Both the position numbers and the translations under genes were made by a program. Under the pieces are notes generated by a model. It ran no database searches. It was not told the DNA's origin and saw only the letters and a list, made by a program, of their open reading frames with translations. From Polyangiaceae bacterium (GTDB taxonomy: Bacteria > Myxococcota_A > Polyangia > Polyangiales > Polyangiaceae): a DNA stretch of 64,000 nt. Below are positions 37,018 to 44,069 of the stretch, piece after piece (the first letter of the stretch is position 1; the number at the start of each line of letters is the position of its first letter). The stretch is from NCBI GenBank assembly GCA_044376115.1, contig JBILLK010000010.1, positions 32,001 to 96,000 of the forward strand, in the 5' to 3' direction.

Positions 37018-38553
37018 TCAGCGGGTGAGCGCGTCACGAGCGGCGTCGGCAACGCCTTCGTAGTGCGACTGTGTCAGCTGCGTGAGCATCTTCTTGGCGG
37101 CGGGATGCTCGGCGTGCCGACGCAGCCCGTTGAGCACAGCCCACGCCATATCGCTCGAGCCATCCTGGGTCAGGAGCTGGCCATAGAGCTGGGCGGCCTG
37201 CTCCGGTCGCATCATGACGGCCATGCTGCCGATACACTCGTAGCGAACCTCCGCTGAAGGATCTTGCTGAGCGGCTTGCTGAGCGAGGGGGAGCAATTGC
37301 GGGAGCTCCTCGAGGTTGCAAAACTGGAACGCCATCGCCCGCCGTACTTCCTCGTCTTGGTCGCTCATCAAGCGCGAGGCGAGCCCCCAGATTCGCTGGA
37401 AAGCCTCTTTGGGCAGACAATGAAGGCTGCTCGCGATCTCCTTCTTCACTTCGCGGTTGGGGTTTGCCGCGTGCTTCTCGAACACGGTCAGCGTGAGCTC
37501 GCCCATCCCGTAGTGGTGAGCGAAGGCGAGCGTCGACATGCACGCCGCCTGCACCTCGGCGCTAGGGTCTCGATCAGCCTGATTGGCGACGCCATGCATG
37601 ACTTGTTGGTCGTCTCGATAGCTGGAGAAGCCACCAATCGCAGCCGCACGCACCTGGGGATCCGGGTCCTGAGTCAGTGCGATCAGCAGCTCGCGCTTGC
37701 CATTGAACTTCTCCGCTGAGTGAAAGCGCAACCCGCTCGCGACTTCGCGTCGGATGTGAGCGTCACCCGCCTGGGCTAACTGCTGTACGAGCTGATAGGC
37801 GCCTTCCTCGGCGAACTTGCAGGCCGCCACGATCACCTGATCAAAGGTGGCTTGATCGAGCCCGGGGATGTTGGCGACGGCGTAAAGCGTCTGCAAGTGC
37901 TGGGGCTTTACTCGATTATCCACCAAGTTGGCCCAGGCCGTCAGCGCGGCGCGACGAACGTTGACCGTCCCCTGCGCCATCAAGTGAGACAGATAAGGCT
38001 CAATCTCCATTAGTTGCGAGCCCTCGGAGTAGCAGGCAATGAACAAGTCATTGAGCGCGTCCTCGAGTTCGTGCTCTTGCTGGCTTCGCAGAGCGGGATA
38101 GCGCGAGAAGATCTCCTCGATCGGCAACAGCCTGAATTCGTCATCGGAGGCGTCCACCACCTTGAGCTCTTTGCTGTCGCTCGGGTCCTTCACGCCGGGA
38201 ATGTCGGCCGCGGCCATGACCGTGTACGAGACGTTGTGCGCTGTGGTCTCGGTGCCGTGCGGAACGGTGAAGCGGAAGGCGAAGTTCTTGACCGACTCGG
38301 GCGCGAGGTCTTCACCAGCGGCCACCGTCTGAGTGAGTAGGATCTCGGTCTTGATGTCCGGCAGACTTTGACCTTCTCGCGAATGCACCGAGACAAAGAG
38401 CAGTTTGACCGTGAGTTCCGTGAGCTTGAGCGGCTTCTTACCGCCGTGCAGGGTGATCTTTCCGCCAACCACGCCGCCTGCCGAAGCCTGCGGAGTGTCG
38501 AGTGTCATCGTGAGTTTGGTTCCCCCGCCGAACATCGAATCGAGCATTCCCAT
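37018..38553 (-). CDS. Spo0M/arrestin-N-like domain + HEAT repeats
   Basis: N-terminal MFGGG...GKITLHGG...FRFTVP...ADIPGVKDP, multiple DPDPQVRAAA-type HEAT units, GGAGG RBS. Confidence 0.75.
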   Translation of the reverse strand: MGMLDSMFGGGTKLTMTLDTPQASAGGVVGGKITLHGGKKPLKLTELTVKLLFVSVHSREGQSLPDIKTEILLTQTVAAGEDLAPESVKNFAFRFTVPHGTETTAHNVSYTVMAAADIPGVKDPSDSKELKVVDASDDEFRLLPIEEIFSRYPALRSQQEHELEDALNDLFIACYSEGSQLMEIEPYLSHLMAQGTVNVRRAALTAWANLVDNRVKPQHLQTLYAVANIPGLDQATFDQVIVAACKFAEEGAYQLVQQLAQAGDAHIRREVASGLRFHSAEKFNGKRELLIALTQDPDPQVRAAAIGGFSSYRDDQQVMHGVANQADRDPSAEVQAACMSTLAFAHHYGMGELTLTVFEKHAANPNREVKKEIASSLHCLPKEAFQRIWGLASRLMSDQDEEVRRAMAFQFCNLEELPQLLPLAQQAAQQDPSAEVRYECIGSMAVMMRPEQAAQLYGQLLTQDGSSDMAWAVLNGLRRHAEHPAAKKMLTQLTQSHYEGVADAARDALTR

Positions 38554-38632
38554 ATGGACCTCCAGGCTCTCGATACGATGAGAGCGAGCCAGGCCTTGTA
38601 CGGCGAACCGAGGGTATTCCCCCCTGCTGCAG

Positions 38633-39010
38633 CTAGCGGCTACTCTCGCGCGAGTCCGCCATCGCTTGAGCCAAGCCCTGACTAAACTTTTGGCGGTCGG
38701 AGAGGATCGTAAGGTCGCGACCGATCACCAACGCTGACACGCTCAAGGCCATCGCTAGGACCTTGGACTTCACGAGGAAGACAGGGAAGACCAACTTTTC
38801 TTTGGTAGCTGCCCAGTCGCGGTAGGGCGAGCGCACCTCAGGGTCAAAGCCGGTGATACCCGTCCAGTCATGAAAGACCTGCAGCGTTTGACCTTTCATC
38901 AACAGGCGATCGATACGTTGCGTGTAGAAGTGCAGCGCGTCCAATTCGACGTGCCCGCTGACGCGGGTGCATACAAGCGTCGGCGTCAGCACCCAAAACA
39001 GCGCCTCCAT
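38633..39010 (-). CDS. Small hypothetical protein, STAS/SEC14-like
   Basis: VFHDW...FDPEVR...FLVKSK pattern seen in small myxobacterial STAS-like proteins. Start 39010 or 39094. Confidence 0.55.
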   Translation of the reverse strand: MEALFWVLTPTLVCTRVSGHVELDALHFYTQRIDRLLMKGQTLQVFHDWTGITGFDPEVRSPYRDWAATKEKLVFPVFLVKSKVLAMALSVSALVIGRDLTILSDRQKFSQGLAQAMADSRESSR

Positions 39011-39138
39011 CCGTTGCCCGGCCAAACGCTCGGCCTTCTCCTCGTTGAGCTCCACCCGGCGATGAGGGTAGTCCAACTCGCAGCCGATTCGCACCCCTTC
39101 TCACGCTAACGACGTGAATCGAGCGCAGCGGTCCTCCG

Positions 39139-40347
39139 TTAGCGCAACACACCCAAGCGTCTTCGAGGAGTCACGCGGCTGGGCTGCCAATTCGTCTCCG
39201 TTGCCGCAGGCTCGACGATGACGTCCCACTGCCCATGGTCGAAGGGAGAGCCATCTCCAACCGCAACAGGAACGAGTCGCTCACGCAGCCCCTGCTCCTT
39301 CATCTTGAGCGCGCGGTGATGGCAATACGGGTTATTGCCTCGCCGACCAAAGAATACGTGCGCTGTCCAGGAGCAACCGCCTTTGCAGATCGTGCGATAG
39401 TAGCAACCGCCACAATAGCCCCATAGCTCCGCCATACGGTCTTGGCGATTGAAGGTTAGCGCCGAAGCGTTTTGCCAAATCGACTCGATGCTTTGGCTGC
39501 GCACGTTGCCCCCGACGTAGCCCGCGGTTGGCAAGGAAGGGCAGCCCTTCACAGCGCCGTCTGCCTCTAGCCCAAGCCCGGCGATTCCAGCGTGACAGCC
39601 CTGGAAGTGGGCCACTTCTCCGGGCCGCGCCACCACACCGCGCAGCTCCTGCTCATGGGGCCCGAAGTATCCAACGTTGTTGCCTGGGAAAAGCCGCAGC
39701 CCCCCAGCCTTCGCTCTTCTCGCCAGCTCAGCCAACTTGGGGAACACGAGCAGAAGGTCCTCGGGTTGGAACAGCCAATCCGGATGCTCTTGGGCACGCC
39801 CCATCGGGACCGTCATAGCGACCTGCCAGCCGTGCGCCCCGTGCGCGAGGAACAGGTCCAACATCGCGTCGAGGTCAGGGAACGATAGGCGGTTGAGCTG
39901 GGAGTTAGCGGAGACAGGGACGCCGGCCTCACGCAGGTTCTCGAACGCGTTCACCGCCCGTTCAAAGCTGCCCACCACACCGCGTTGCACGTCATGGGTC
40001 TCGCCGATCCCGTCGACCGAGATGCTCACGCTATCCACGCGAGCGGCCTTGGCCGTGCGTGCCAGCTCCTTGGTAAAGCCGCGCCCGCCCGTCACCATGC
40101 TGCAGATCATCCCAGCATCCGAGATCGCGCTGGCGATCTCCGCCCAGTCTTCTCGAAGGTAGGCCTCACCGCCGATCAGCGACACTTCGCGCGCGCCCAT
40201 CTGGGCTAGCTGCGAAACGACGTCGAGCGCCTCCCGCGTCGAGAGCTCCCCTTCCCGCTTCTTGGCCGCTCGCGAGCCGCAGTGCCCGCACGCTAGATCG
40301 CAGGCGAGCGTCAGCTCCCAAACGACGTGCCGAAGGGTCGTTGCCAT
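39139..40347 (-). CDS. Radical SAM/SPASM peptide maturase, PlpX (splicease)/TIGR03913-like
   Basis: VWELTLACDLACGHCGSRA (CxxxCxxC), IGGEAYLREDW; SPASM GCHAG...LEADGAVKGCPSL...LWGYCGGCYY...CKGGCSWT...GNNPYCHHRAL. Confidence 0.9.
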   Translation of the reverse strand: MATTLRHVVWELTLACDLACGHCGSRAAKKREGELSTREALDVVSQLAQMGAREVSLIGGEAYLREDWAEIASAISDAGMICSMVTGGRGFTKELARTAKAARVDSVSISVDGIGETHDVQRGVVGSFERAVNAFENLREAGVPVSANSQLNRLSFPDLDAMLDLFLAHGAHGWQVAMTVPMGRAQEHPDWLFQPEDLLLVFPKLAELARRAKAGGLRLFPGNNVGYFGPHEQELRGVVARPGEVAHFQGCHAGIAGLGLEADGAVKGCPSLPTAGYVGGNVRSQSIESIWQNASALTFNRQDRMAELWGYCGGCYYRTICKGGCSWTAHVFFGRRGNNPYCHHRALKMKEQGLRERLVPVAVGDGSPFDHGQWDVIVEPAATETNWQPSRVTPRRRLGVLR

Positions 40348-40359
40348 CGCACTTACCGA

Positions 40360-40782
40360 CTACTGCCGTTGCTTCGGATCGCGCGGGGGCGGGCCGTACA
40401 CCTTGACCGAGGGCTTCACGGTGGGCGCGGCGCTTGGAACAGCGCTTGGGGTGGCGCTCGCTGATGCGCTCGGGACAGGCGTTGGGAGCGGCAATTCCCG
40501 AGCAGACGGGTCTACCGGCGGAGGACCGTAGACGGCCACCATCTCATTCGGATTGGGCGTTGGTGCTGTATCAGCCGATTGGGCTGCGCTGGCGGAAACG
40601 CGCGCGTCCGGGTCGACCGGCGGAGGGCCGTAAACGTCATTGGGCGCGCTGCAGGCTGCGGCGAGACTGAGCACCGCGGTGAGCGCCAAAAGGTTGGGGC
40701 GACCACGCAGCCCGCAATGAGGACAGGCAACTTCAGCACCGAAGGCGTGGCAACCGCACGAGGGACAGACGACCAGCGACAT
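40360..40782 (-). CDS. Putative precursor A: CxxC-CxxC leader, lipobox, three VYGPPP motifs
   Basis: CPSC...CPHC, LAAAC, Tyr codons at 40632, 40530 and 40398. Ends 12 nt before the rSAM start. Confidence 0.8.
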   Translation of the reverse strand: MSLVVCPSCGCHAFGAEVACPHCGLRGRPNLLALTAVLSLAAACSAPNDVYGPPPVDPDARVSASAAQSADTAPTPNPNEMVAVYGPPPVDPSARELPLPTPVPSASASATPSAVPSAAPTVKPSVKVYGPPPRDPKQRQ

Positions 40783-40805
40783 GGCCCGAAGTTACCACGC
40801 CCACC

Positions 40806-41135
40806 TTACTTTCGTTGATTTGGATCACGCGGCGGCGGACCGTAGACCTCGCTCGGAGAGTTGGCCGTATTGGGCAATTCGGTAGCCGACGGCTCGCTGG
40901 AGGCCGGCGCCGAGGCGGAGGCCGAGGTTGCGGCCTCGCGTGCGGATGGATTGACCGGAGCTGGCCCGTAAACACCTACTACATGGTCTGCGTGGTTAGT
41001 GCATCCGACCGCCGCCAAGCCCAACGCCAACGAAAGCGCAAGCAGCGTAGGCCTACCGCGAAGACCACAATGAGGACACTCGGCCTCACTCGCGAACGCA
41101 TGTCGTCCACACGAGGGGCAAACGATCAGCACCAT
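40806..41135 (-). CDS. Putative precursor B: CxxC-CxxC leader, lipobox, two VYGP motifs
   Basis: Internal ATG 41135 (MVLIVCPSC...CPHC), AVGC lipobox, VYGPAP and VYGPPP. Paralogue of precursor A. Confidence 0.8.
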   Translation of the reverse strand: MVLIVCPSCGRHAFASEAECPHCGLRGRPTLLALSLALGLAAVGCTNHADHVVGVYGPAPVNPSAREAATSASASAPASSEPSATELPNTANSPSEVYGPPPRDPNQRK

Positions 41136-41191
41136 GCGCTGAACCCTATCATGCGCGCAGCAAGCTCGTCTGCGGTCCGCAAGCCGTCTGA

Positions 41192-41213
41192 TGCATCCAC
41201 CTTCGGCGGAATG
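41192..41213. repeat. 22-bp intergenic hairpin repeat, copy 1
   Basis: tgcatccaccttcggcggaatg; exact reverse complement of 61544-61565. Confidence 0.75.
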
Positions 41214-41228
41214 GACTAGCCTGGGCGG

Positions 41229-42011
41229 GTGAAACGCACCTTCGTCATTGGCGACATTCACGGGGACATGTTCCACCTCACGCAGCTCATGGCCAAGCTG
41301 CCGCCGCTGGGAGCCCGCGATACGCTGGTATTTCTTGGTGACTACCTCGATCGCGGACCGGCCTCGGCTGGGGTCATTGAGTACGTTATGAGCCTCCCGC
41401 GAAAGACCCCCGCGCGGGTGGTCGCGCTGCGTGGAAACCATGAAGACGCCTGGTTGCGGGTGCTCGACCAAGGCTGGCCCGAGTTCGTCATTCCGCGTAC
41501 CAACGGCTGCCTCGAGACGCTGCGCTCCTACAAGCGACAGCCAGCACCTCAACCGGATGACGCGCCGGAGCCTCACGAGTTTGGCGAGATGCTCAAGGGC
41601 TCATTCTTCCCGCCTCACGTGGTCGAGTGGATGCGCAGCCTGCCGTATTACTACGAAGACGAATTCGCTATCTACGTGCACGCTGGCATTCCCAAGAAGG
41701 ACAACGAGTTTCGCCACCCGAGCATGGTCGAACCGAAGACCGCGCTGCTTTGGACGCGGGATAGCGACTTCTTCAGGAACTACCGCGGTAAGACTGTCGT
41801 CTTCGGCCACACCAAGACAGCGCTATTGCCAGCGGAGCTATCGCAGTACACGCCCGAGGATCCGGAAGACATGTGGGCGGGACCGGCGGTGCTCGGCTTG
41901 GATACCGGCTGCGGCAAGGGCGGGTTCCTCACTGCGGTAGAGTTCCCGCGCAAACGCGTCTACGAATCTCGCAAGCGCCGGCGCAATGCCCCCCCACGTA
42001 CCGTGCGCTAG
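41229..42011 (+). CDS. PPP-family metallophosphoesterase (Ser/Thr protein phosphatase-like)
   Basis: GDIHG, GDYLDRG, LRGNHE, HAG, FGHT, LDTG. Confidence 0.92.
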   Translation: MKRTFVIGDIHGDMFHLTQLMAKLPPLGARDTLVFLGDYLDRGPASAGVIEYVMSLPRKTPARVVALRGNHEDAWLRVLDQGWPEFVIPRTNGCLETLRSYKRQPAPQPDDAPEPHEFGEMLKGSFFPPHVVEWMRSLPYYYEDEFAIYVHAGIPKKDNEFRHPSMVEPKTALLWTRDSDFFRNYRGKTVVFGHTKTALLPAELSQYTPEDPEDMWAGPAVLGLDTGCGKGGFLTAVEFPRKRVYESRKRRRNAPPRTVR

Positions 42012-42916: not shown

Positions 42917-43957
42917 TCAACCAGGCTCGCACACGCCGTTCTGACATTGAAGATTGTTGCCGCAATCGTTGTCTTGAATGCACTCAACACAGTTGCCGTT
43001 CTCGCTACAGAAGGGTGACGCCTCGGTGCAATCCGCGTTCAGCAGACACTCGACGCACTCGAAATTGTTATCGCAAAGCGGCGCGCCCGGCTCACCGGCG
43101 CAGTCGGCGTTGTCGAGGCATTGCTCACAATTGTTGTTGGGTGAGCATACCGGGTTATTCCCGCCGCACTCCGCGTCTACCACGCACTCGACGCAGATGC
43201 CTTCTGCTGTATCGCAGGCCGGCTGCTCAGGGTTGGGGCAATCTGCGTTGGTTGCACAGGCGGCGACACAGTTATTGTTGAGGCAGAGCGACCCGCTCGG
43301 GCAATCCGGGTCGATGATGCACTCACGGCAGCGGCCGGCACTGACTTCACAATGAGGCTCTGCCAGAGCACATTCGGAGTCCATCGTGCACTCGGCACAA
43401 ATACCTAATTGGCTATTGCACAGCGGCTGCTCACCGGGGCAATCATTGGCGCTCAAGCACTCGACGCAGGCGCCAGTCGCTGCATCGCAGAAATCAGCCT
43501 GCCCTTGGCCACAGTCGTTGTTGCTCGTACAGGCCGTATCGCACTCGTGGTTGGTCGGGTGACAATACTGATTGGCGCCACAATCGGCGGTGGTCGCGCA
43601 TTCTTCGCATTGACCAAAGAAGCAGGCCGGCTGCCCAGGATCGAGGCAATCCGCGTTGGTAGCGCACTCCACGCAACCAAGCTCCGGGTCACAGAATTGA
43701 TTGACGTTGCATCCTGAGCAGACGTCTGTTCCGCCGCCGGTGCCGTTGCCACCGGTAGCGTTACCGCCGTTCCCTCCGTTGCCCATTCCCCCAGCGCCAC
43801 CGCCACCACTCTGCGTGCCCCCCGCGCCGCCAGCGCCAGCGGTACCGCCACCACTTCCCCCGGAAGCCCCAGTAGCCCCAGTGCCGGTCGAGCCGTCGTC
43901 AGAGCACGCAACCAACGAAAAGCCGAGGACGGCAGCGAGAAGCGAATAGCGCATCAT
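42917..43957 (-). CDS. Cys-rich repeat lipoprotein
   Basis: GGAGG RBS, lipobox LVAC, Gly linker, 11 CVECxxxxDC-type repeats. Confidence 0.85.
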   Translation of the reverse strand: MMRYSLLAAVLGFSLVACSDDGSTGTGATGASGGSGGGTAGAGGAGGTQSGGGGAGGMGNGGNGGNATGGNGTGGGTDVCSGCNVNQFCDPELGCVECATNADCLDPGQPACFFGQCEECATTADCGANQYCHPTNHECDTACTSNNDCGQGQADFCDAATGACVECLSANDCPGEQPLCNSQLGICAECTMDSECALAEPHCEVSAGRCRECIIDPDCPSGSLCLNNNCVAACATNADCPNPEQPACDTAEGICVECVVDAECGGNNPVCSPNNNCEQCLDNADCAGEPGAPLCDNNFECVECLLNADCTEASPFCSENGNCVECIQDNDCGNNLQCQNGVCEPG

Positions 43958-44069
43958 GAGAACCTCCAATGAAGATTAGTGGGTTGTGCAAAGGCGCGCG
44001 GCCGCACCCCTGACTTGCCAAGGGTAGAGGAGCCATTCGCACTGCAGGCTCGGGAACGGAGCCTGTCAG

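Follow-up and report, generated by a model that had tools for sequence, protein, structure and literature searches.

Spliceases are radical S-adenosylmethionine (SAM)/SPASM enzymes which act on X-Tyr-Gly (XYG) sites of ribosomally made precursors, and tyramine splicing is, to our knowledge, the only known ribosomal route to alpha-keto-beta-amino acids. The survey of Scott et al. (2022) is cited for 27 characterised and 939 predicted systems (PMC10533398) and as covering 189 genera (PMC10849128), and a review states that by 2022 no final spliceotide product had been isolated from its native host and that native function was still unclear (PMC9811515). In the known binary spliceases the leader or a Y protein is described as docking via an alpha-helix, the leader being an activator; AlphaFold2 models of known substrates have their XYG sites placed in the active centre, and an experimental splicease structure is stated not to exist (PMC11414181). 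In this work we analysed a three-gene operon of a myxobacterium, Polyangiaceae bacterium (assembly GCA_044376115.1, contig JBILLK010000010.1, positions 32,001 to 96,000; this whole stretch of 64,000 nucleotides is referred to as the window). The operon is composed of two small precursor genes, named A1 and A2, and of the gene for a radical SAM/SPASM enzyme, named X. We consider it somewhat better than an even bet, at a probability of roughly 0.55, that A1-A2-X is a binary spliceotide module in which a zinc ribbon serves as leader, tyramine is excised at Val-Tyr-Gly (VYG) sites, and the products are exported by the Sec route and lipidated. A spliceotide reading had been put forward in an earlier first-pass annotation of the window, and the in silico results reported here support it.

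The three genes are co-oriented, with a gap of 23 nt between A1 and A2 (40805..40783) and of 12 nt between A2 and X (40359..40348), and the coordinates of the open reading frames (ORFs), all on the minus strand (Table 1), bear out the layout first described for them. The longest A1 frame returned by the ORF finder reaches position 41576; because the extra part of this frame overlaps a divergent metallophosphoesterase gene (41229..42011), and because homologues start at M-x-L-V/I-V-C-P, the A1 start was set at 41135. Comparison with an orthologous locus (L009; 93% identical) gave ratios of nonsynonymous to synonymous substitution rates (dN/dS) of 0.06 for A1, 0.08 for A2 and 0.06 for X, the orthologues of A1 and A2 being 75% (over the BLAST alignment) and 85% identical, respectively. 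These low dN/dS values indicate purifying selection and thus that A1 and A2 are real, constrained genes. A scan of positions 38500-41500 for promoters and terminators found no promoter-like site and one terminator-like site against 2.0 expected, a result which is uninformative at the high guanine-plus-cytosine (GC) content of myxobacteria.

Both precursors show the same order of parts, which is a four-cysteine zinc ribbon (CPSCG(R/C)HAF..E..CPHCG), the residues RGRP, a hydrophobic run of 14-15 residues, a cysteine, a linker rich in Ala, Ser and Pro, and VYGPPPxDPxxR repeats. The TAC codons of the tyrosines start at positions 40970, 40844, 40632, 40530 and 40398, and each stands within GT(N) TAC GG(N) CC(N), encoding V-Y-G-P. 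These five motifs, at the codon positions first assigned to them, account for every tyrosine of both proteins (two of two in A1, three of three in A2), and all five lie in the context VYGP(P/A)P. The hydrophobic run and its closing cysteine read as a putative lipoprotein signal by the lipobox rule [LVI][ASTVI][GAS]C; small residues precede the cysteine in A1 (LAAVG-C, in the context RGRPT-LLALSLALGLAAVG-C) as well as in A2 (LAAA-C). The first-pass annotation had described the YG motifs of these substrates correctly; it did not notice the zinc ribbon or the lipoprotein-type signal, by which this substrate class stands apart.

A database search with the precursors recovered only 17 relatives, all from metagenomes or metagenome-assembled genomes (MAGs), one of which (P0002) is a fragment of the window's own protein. 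A1, A2 and 14 of these 17 were aligned, leaving out P0002 and two sequences with long N-terminal miscalls (P0009 and P0016). In the resulting 16-row alignment there is little or no variation in the ribbon residues, in the V-Y-G-P-x-P...R blocks and at the cysteine closing the hydrophobic run, and the linkers drift. In A1 numbering C20, P21, H22 and C23 of the ribbon are invariant and C6, P7, C9 and H12 are present in at least 90% of the rows, the hydrophobic run is closed by a cysteine in all 16 homologues, and the pattern [VI]YG[PA] holds all 41 tyrosines of the 16 family members, which goes beyond chance. Known zinc-ribbon models match the A1 ribbon weakly and below threshold. Neither Pfam nor NCBIfam has a family for A1, A2 or ten wider relatives, with only incidental CarboxypepD_reg and AgmX/PglI C-terminal domains in the larger of these relatives, and neither A1 nor A2 matches the Nif11 or NHLP models of NCBIfam and Pfam. 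A search of PDB sequences with the precursor profile gave chance-level matches only (E of at least 0.57), to cytochrome c551 and to the ribosomal zinc-ribbon proteins eL37 and Nop10, and matches in the ESM Atlas belonged to Myxococcota clusters only.

The enzyme passes the Pfam models PF04055 (76.4 bits, cut-off 29.5) and PF13186 (27.7 bits, cut-off 21.5), and all four signatures listed for it beforehand, VWELTLAC, LEADGAVKGCPSL, LWGYCGGCYY and GNNPYCHHRAL, are present. Its best NCBIfam model is TIGR04103 (nif11-class peptide radical SAM maturase 3), which we take to be the model behind InterPro IPR026482, at 491.3 bits over model positions 4-382 of 412, followed by TIGR03913 (GDL motif peptide-associated radical SAM/SPASM maturase) at 424.3 bits over positions 20-394 of 477; the next model, that of heme b synthase AhbD, reaches 164.5 bits, about one third of the best score. 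PlpX itself has been assigned to IPR026482 (PMC11002830). The first-pass annotation's match to PlpX-type or TIGR03913-like enzymes therefore stands in so far as these are by far the best models, and falls short in that both family cut-offs are missed. From the 150 best matches to X among cluster representatives, the 90 with the most query coverage were scanned against both hidden Markov models (HMMs). One of these, P0140, which is 50% identical to X, passes TIGR03913 with 771 bits, and none of the 90 passes TIGR04103, the best being P0142 with 550.6 bits. A FastTree phylogeny was built from 28 of the scanned representatives, eight outgroup representatives and 18 loci, with PlpX, PcpX and RhaX not among them. 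In this tree X lies within a large clade which also holds P0142, and the TIGR03913 group with P0140 forms the sister clade; X was thus found inside, and not outside, the clade bounded by TIGR03913 members and by the representative nearest to TIGR04103. As judged by models and tree, X probably belongs to the splicease superfamily, outside called membership of the PlpX or GDL families.

The association of such enzymes with zinc-ribbon/YG proteins was addressed in the host's own genome (10.1 Mb in 94 contigs), where all reading frames were searched for the pattern of a zinc ribbon, a hydrophobic run and YG. The genome carries nine X paralogues, one with an in-frame stop. The eight other than X are 45-52% identical to it and are located at C43:4993-6102, C43:447973-449088, C39:134050-135159, C74:3455-4555, C57:132263-133417, C57:94855-95976, C84:192309-193460 and C32:12335-13489, the last being the copy interrupted by an in-frame TAA. 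The pattern was met in 16 frames, one of which (on C92) is clearly spurious, and eight of the 16 pattern proteins lie no more than 1.5 kb from an X paralogue against 0.059 expected (binomial P = 4e-16). Pattern proteins were found near seven of the nine paralogues. The partners of most of the other paralogues differ in their site, which reads RYGIAP, KYGMPP, EYGVPA, IYGA (together with an OmpA-like domain) or MACYGGG, in which YG directly follows the lipobox cysteine. Five further zinc-ribbon/lipobox/YG proteins in this genome have no enzyme gene within 1.5 kb (C43:425145, C43:425663, C43:438139, C57:2156 and C82:4694). Of these five, the two of the PYGAPP type on C43 sit 22 kb from the C43:447973 paralogue. 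Elsewhere, enzymes of the clade to which that paralogue belongs have PYGAPP partners, so that action in trans is suggested.

The same pairing recurs in other genomes. A scan of a sequence collection gave 61 loci, of which 20 were distant or fragmentary and were dropped; the analysis covered the other 41 (L009-L049), whose X homologue is at least 46% identical. A neighbour with zinc ribbon and hydrophobic run was detected at 30 of the 41 loci and contained YG in 28 of these 30; a looser scan added L029 and L040 (frame seems broken), bringing the loci with a YG partner to 30 of 41. Together with the seven of nine paralogues above, this speaks against a situation in which homologous loci lack YG-motif partners. 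The 65 YG sites in 40 neighbour proteins have the consensus x-Y-G-(A/P)-P-P, with Pro at +3 in 55 of 65 and Ala or Pro at +2 in 49 of 65. The subtype of the motif tracks the clade of the enzyme, being VYGPPP in the window, a C-terminal PYGAPPARRRxV in Kofleriaceae and Haliangiales MAGs, or CAYGMPP, which is weak evidence alone as related loci share such labels by descent. Where a locus has multiple partner genes these number two to four in tandem. At L022, L024, L025, L029, L030, L032, L033, L035 and L045 (Kofleriaceae, Haliangiales and related MAGs) there are one to four partner genes, usually in tandem, all of whose products end in a near-invariant (K/M)PYGAPPARRR(V/I/F/L)V. Several of these have a CarboxypepD_reg domain between lipobox and tail and are a folded-protein version of the substrate class. 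CarboxypepD_reg, OmpA-like or AgmX/PglI C-terminal domains are carried by some of the larger partners in general; one of them is the partner of the second-closest named X homologue (L011:2303-2983), composed of a ribbon, a lipobox, one VYGPA and a C-terminal domain of the AgmX/PglI (GltJ/GltG) type, the latter at 31.7 bits on NF033768 and below its cut-off of 40. Four loci come from Planctomycetota MAGs (L014, L016, L031 and L034) and encode enzymes about 60% identical to X; at three of them the adjoining zinc-ribbon/lipobox proteins have 3-5 (A/E/V)YGAP(P/M)P sites, while L031 has no such partner. The class is therefore not confined to Myxococcota. A metagenome scan with the precursor profile added eight loci, five of them of the VYGPPP subfamily with one to three tandem precursor genes, and all four loci of this subfamily which extend past the last precursor run straight into X. 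On three low-GC metagenome contigs (L075:703-2323, L076:2995-4055 and L077:2605-4448) a lipoprotein or a DUF805-like membrane protein with 3-5 (V/I)YGPP repeats was found beside another radical SAM/SPASM enzyme, 24-32% identical to X; this enzyme comes closest to the family TIGR04133 'rSAM_w_lipo', with 285-292 bits against a cut-off of 425.

One complex prediction was made, of X (as a 40-row alignment) with A2 (as a 16-row alignment), in three runs and with three controls. The complex score had a median of 0.65 (runs 0.60, 0.65 and 0.79) compared to 0.01 for the best of the three controls, and passed a mark which is reached by 116 of 157 solved complexes and by 2 of 215 mismatched pairs, counts that are rough here as our own alignments were used. 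The runs share at least 89% of contacts and the pLDDT (predicted local distance difference test) of the partner is at least 63. On A2 the confident interface comprises residues 1-5, 9-12 and 21 of the ribbon and residues 82-90 (VAVYGPPPV, which holds Tyr85), the latter being its sole part outside the ribbon. The residue pairs with the lowest predicted error join the A2 ribbon to X residues 228-233, 245, 247, 316-317, 320 and 344, among which F228, G229, E232, Y316, Y317 and H344 are invariant in 40 homologues. Other contacts on X include residues 6-9, 54-58, 81-85, 105-108, 144-148 and 172-177, some of them just before the GGE motif (G59-G60-E61); by elimination, these would belong to the YG segment within the barrel. 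The model thus supports a picture in which the ribbon docks on X and the middle VYGPPP reaches the enzyme. A search of PDB sequences with X gave SkfB and PqqE as best matches, over the N-terminal half only. As there is no solved splicease complex, it is unlikely that the prediction passed by recall of a known structure.

Taken together, these data suggest the following course of events. A1-A2-X would be a self-contained module working without a separate helper (Y) protein; the operon showed no PqqD-like Y helper, and the neighbouring ORFs have no match to PqqD or RiPP recognition element (RRE) models, RiPP standing for ribosomally synthesised and post-translationally modified peptide. X would be a cytoplasmic radical SAM/SPASM enzyme of the splicease type, with A1 and A2 as its substrates. 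Their zinc ribbon would act as leader or handle by docking on X, at a conserved surface that lies between barrel and SPASM domain, and threading of the disordered tail would bring the VYGP(P/A)P sites one by one into the barrel, beside the SAM cluster. There a tyramine equivalent (C8H9NO, about -135 Da) would be excised from the tyrosine of X-Tyr-Gly and the backbone rejoined as an alpha-keto-beta-amide; up to two sites in A1 and three in A2 would each become a ketoamide derived from Val, with Gly-Pro-Pro-Pro after it. Sec export, lipidation and cleavage at Cys45 (A1) or Cys44 (A2) would follow, and this cleavage would also remove the ribbon leader, so that the end product would be a lipid-anchored proline-rich tail carrying two to three electrophilic ketoamides. 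No protease or exporter gene adjoins the module among the neighbouring ORFs, which fits export by the general lipoprotein route. The probable outcome for the cell is thus a set of lipid-anchored proteins whose backbone is chemically altered at these sites. As regards their function, inhibition of elastase, chymotrypsin and cathepsin B by Rheinheimera spliceotides has been reported to require splicing (PMC11626197), which suggests, by analogy, the plausible guess that the products are envelope-tethered inhibitors of serine or cysteine proteases.

A number of observations weigh against this interpretation. X is below both curated cut-offs (725 bits for TIGR04103 and 591.75 for TIGR03913), and so are all 12 relatives tested, comprising seven full-length paralogues from its own genome and five homologues; by the curators' cut-off standard, an equivalence of function to PlpX is not established. 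The placement of X in the splicease-related clade was drawn on a tree of HMM-scored cluster representatives, outgroups and loci. Two of the nine paralogues have no pattern protein nearby, 11 of the 41 loci have no YG partner within 3 kb (some of their contigs being short), and at one of these 11, L048, the zinc-ribbon lipoprotein neighbour has a tyrosine and no YG. The ribbon differs from the alpha-helical leaders known so far and its role depends on one structure prediction. It should also be noted that a cytoplasmic X would have to act before export, which would call for some means of timing. Finally, the unrelated TIGR04133-like lineage also stands beside VYGPP-repeat envelope proteins; the motif alone is therefore no proof of splicease chemistry and may attract different enzymes. 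This last point, like the missed cut-offs, could be accommodated if the pairing is as described and X, instead of excising tyramine, performs other radical chemistry at or near the invariant tyrosine (for example beta-hydroxylation, epimerisation, or formation of a C-C or C-O cross-link). We regard this as unlikely, given that the tyrosine is the sole conserved reactive side chain of each repeat, that the 16-row alignment offers no conserved Cys, Trp, Lys or second aromatic residue at a fixed distance as a cross-link partner, and that the glycine after the tyrosine, the splicease signature, is invariant (after all 41 tyrosines of the close family and, by construction, at all 65 sites); X is also about 50% identical to P0140, which does pass TIGR03913.

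The fate of the modified protein is a separate question. A ribbon of about 26 residues ahead of a lipoprotein-type signal is atypical, and A1 and A2 could be modified without becoming lipoproteins, the hydrophobic run being a signal anchor, the ribbon staying in the cytoplasm and the proline-rich tail spanning the periplasm as in bitopic proteins similar to TonB or GltJ. GltJ of Myxococcus has an N-terminal zinc-finger domain, and the L011 neighbour joins ribbon and hydrophobic run to an AgmX/PglI domain, albeit one scored below its cut-off; other relatives have CarboxypepD_reg or OmpA-like domains, so that the class shades into real envelope proteins. This fate appears doubtful to us, since the run spans just about 13-17 residues after basic residues, which fits a lipobox better than a transmembrane helix, and since the cysteine has small residues at -1 and -2 in each of the 16 alignment rows and across most of the broader class. 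It is very improbable that A1 and A2 are merely membrane-tethering or regulatory partners of X whose true substrate is encoded elsewhere. Binding is a prediction of the model, its strongest contacts involve the ribbon and not the YG site, and the operon has neither protease nor exporter gene, all of which would suit a partner role. Against this, the invariant part of the tail is X-Tyr-Gly-Pro, a known splicease target, set among linkers which drift; the model does bring residues 82-90 with Tyr85 to the enzyme; and tandem genes in two to four copies per locus are typical of precursors and not of regulators.

The features of the operon are listed in Table 1 together with a co-oriented ORF downstream of X. 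Conservation of this ORF is limited to the close orthologue of the locus, L009 (81%), with no counterpart seen in L010, L011, L018, L019 or L034, and the ORF is probably outside the module. It was considered as a candidate PlpY-like helper and set aside because it has no family match and is conserved only in this near-identical locus. Elsewhere on the minus strand of the window, positions 42917-43969 encode a lipoprotein-like protein of 350 aa which is rich in Cys, contains Myxo_Cys_RPT repeats (TIGR04201, 47.4 bits) and resembles, below threshold, TraA of outer-membrane exchange; this protein marks the genome as that of a myxobacterium. Positions 37018-38553 encode a 511-aa protein in which an N-terminal SpoOM-like domain (PF07070) is fused to HEAT repeats and which is 97% identical in L009.

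Table 1. Features of the A1-A2-X operon and of the ORF downstream of it (window coordinates).
Feature	Position	Strand	Basis
A1, precursor 1, 109 aa: zinc ribbon, lipoprotein-type signal, two VYGP(A/P)P sites	40806..41135	minus	
A1 zinc ribbon, residues 6-23 (CPSCGRHAFASEAECPHC)	41067..41120	minus	read from sequence
A1 signal-like segment, residues 27-45 (RPT-LLALSLALGLAAVG-C), ending at putative lipobox Cys45	41001..41057	minus	sequence
A1 site 1, Tyr56-Gly57 in VGVYGPAP	40965..40970	minus	sequence and alignment
A1 site 2, Tyr98-Gly99 in SEVYGPPPRDPNQRK, C-terminal	40839..40844	minus	alignment column invariant
A2, precursor 2, 140 aa: zinc ribbon, lipoprotein-type signal, three VYGPPP sites	40360..40782	minus	
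A2 zinc ribbon, residues 6-23 (CPSCGCHAFGAEVACPHC)	40714..40767	minus	sequence and alignment
A2 signal-like segment, residues 26-44 (RGRPN-LLALTAVLSLAAA-C), ending at putative lipobox Cys44	40651..40707	minus	sequence and alignment
A2 site 1, Tyr51-Gly52 in NDVYGPPPVDPDAR	40627..40632	minus	sequence and alignment
A2 site 2, Tyr85-Gly86 in VAVYGPPPVDPSAR	40525..40530	minus	invariant V84, Y85, G86, P87, P89, R95
A2 site 3, Tyr129-Gly130 in VKVYGPPPRDPKQRQ, C-terminal	40393..40398	minus	invariant Y129, G130, P132, R139
X, 402 aa, radical SAM/SPASM enzyme, probable member of the splicease superfamily	39139..40347	minus	HMMs and trees
X, CxxxCxxC radical SAM cluster motif (C16, C20, C23)	40279..40302	minus	invariant in 40 homologues
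X, SPASM region, seven Cys (C251, C269, C312, C315, C321, C325, C342) including Cx2Cx5Cx3C	39322..39597	minus	all invariant in 40 homologues
ORF of 153 aa, co-oriented, downstream of X	38633..39094	minus	no Pfam/NCBIfam match

Our literature search found no paper in which spliceases or spliceotides are connected with zinc ribbons, lipoproteins or myxobacteria, and no text mentioning TIGR04103, TIGR03913 or TIGR04133; in one text (PMC11117315) the terms splicease, spliceotide and Myxococc- occur once each. These loci may already be listed in the spliceotide survey of Scott et al. (Chem 2022), which stands outside the comparison by which the precursor class appears to be without a curated family or a published description. 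If the assignment is correct, the lipoprotein signal would amount to a built-in address label, by which the role of the products becomes directly testable in the myxobacterial envelope, and, if ribbon docking holds, a compact zinc ribbon could be used as a small, portable handle in splicease-based protein engineering. Repeated sites with Val before the tyrosine, and with Pro, Ala, Lys or Glu in sister clades, would widen the apparent natural range of ketoamide side chains. One genome can hold many such sets, with its nine enzyme paralogues and partners near seven of them. More tentatively, and at odds that we would place well short of even, myxobacteria and some Planctomycetota may use a zinc ribbon plus lipoprotein signal as a RiPP-style leader for an arsenal of envelope proteins containing ketoamides (beta-amino acids), with the VYGPP/TIGR04133 loci as a second lineage. 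If this is true, nine enzyme paralogues and about a dozen substrates would provide a single genome with an arsenal of lipid-anchored reactive envelope proteins, for example tethered protease inhibitors in a predator that secretes many proteases, and the TIGR04133-type enzymes with VYGPP lipoproteins of low-GC bacteria would have been independently aimed at the same kind of site.

Among the described systems, the type I spliceotides of Pleurocapsa (PlpX/PlpY/PlpA and PcpXYA) resemble the A1-A2-X operon in having a radical SAM/SPASM enzyme, the best HMM of X being TIGR04103, in having multiple precursor genes and multi-site precursors, and in a target X-Tyr-Gly often followed by x-Pro; the splice tags derived from PlpA read ...PLYGLPI, i.e., YGxP (PMC10533398). 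They differ in that the Nif11/NHLP leader of the Plp type is replaced in the window by a zinc ribbon fused to a lipoprotein-type signal, that X falls short of the Plp-type cut-off and has no Y helper in its operon, that the residue before the tyrosine is Val instead of Met or Leu, and that the host is a myxobacterium and not a cyanobacterium. With the binary type II systems of Rheinheimera (RhaX/RhaA, RcsX/RcsA and RasX/RasA; PMC11414181; PMC11626197), the operon shares the two components of enzyme and precursor, an N-terminal part of the precursor which is predicted to dock and, for Rha as for A2, an XYG placed in the active centre by structure prediction. The Rha leader, however, is a docking alpha-helix and an activator, whereas the docking element of the window would be a four-cysteine zinc ribbon followed by an export signal, and the short core peptides of Rha and Rcs, with a single spliced site each, contrast with proteins of 109-140 aa and two to three repeated sites in the window.

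Similarity to the TIGR03913 group is seen in the second-best HMM of X and in the position of the passing P0140 in the sister clade; X differs from this group in its sub-cut-off score and in lacking about the last 80 model positions, and its partners in the window have no GDL motif. The TIGR04133 type shares the neighbouring lipoprotein or membrane protein with (V/I)YGPP repeats at the three low-GC loci; it is a separate lineage, X reaches only 154 bits on TIGR04133, and there is no zinc ribbon at the TIGR04133-like loci. In anaerobic sulfatase maturation (anSME/AtsB), too, a cytoplasmic radical SAM/SPASM enzyme modifies a signal-peptide-bearing protein before export; that system differs in forming formylglycine from Cys or Ser, in its substrates, and in having no zinc-ribbon handle. 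By analogy, the system of the window would work like a binary spliceotide pathway, with one enzyme, XYG precursors and an N-terminal docking element, and it departs from the known systems in four respects: the zinc-ribbon leader, the lipoprotein-type signal, the repeated Val-Tyr sites and the presence of nine enzyme paralogues in one genome.

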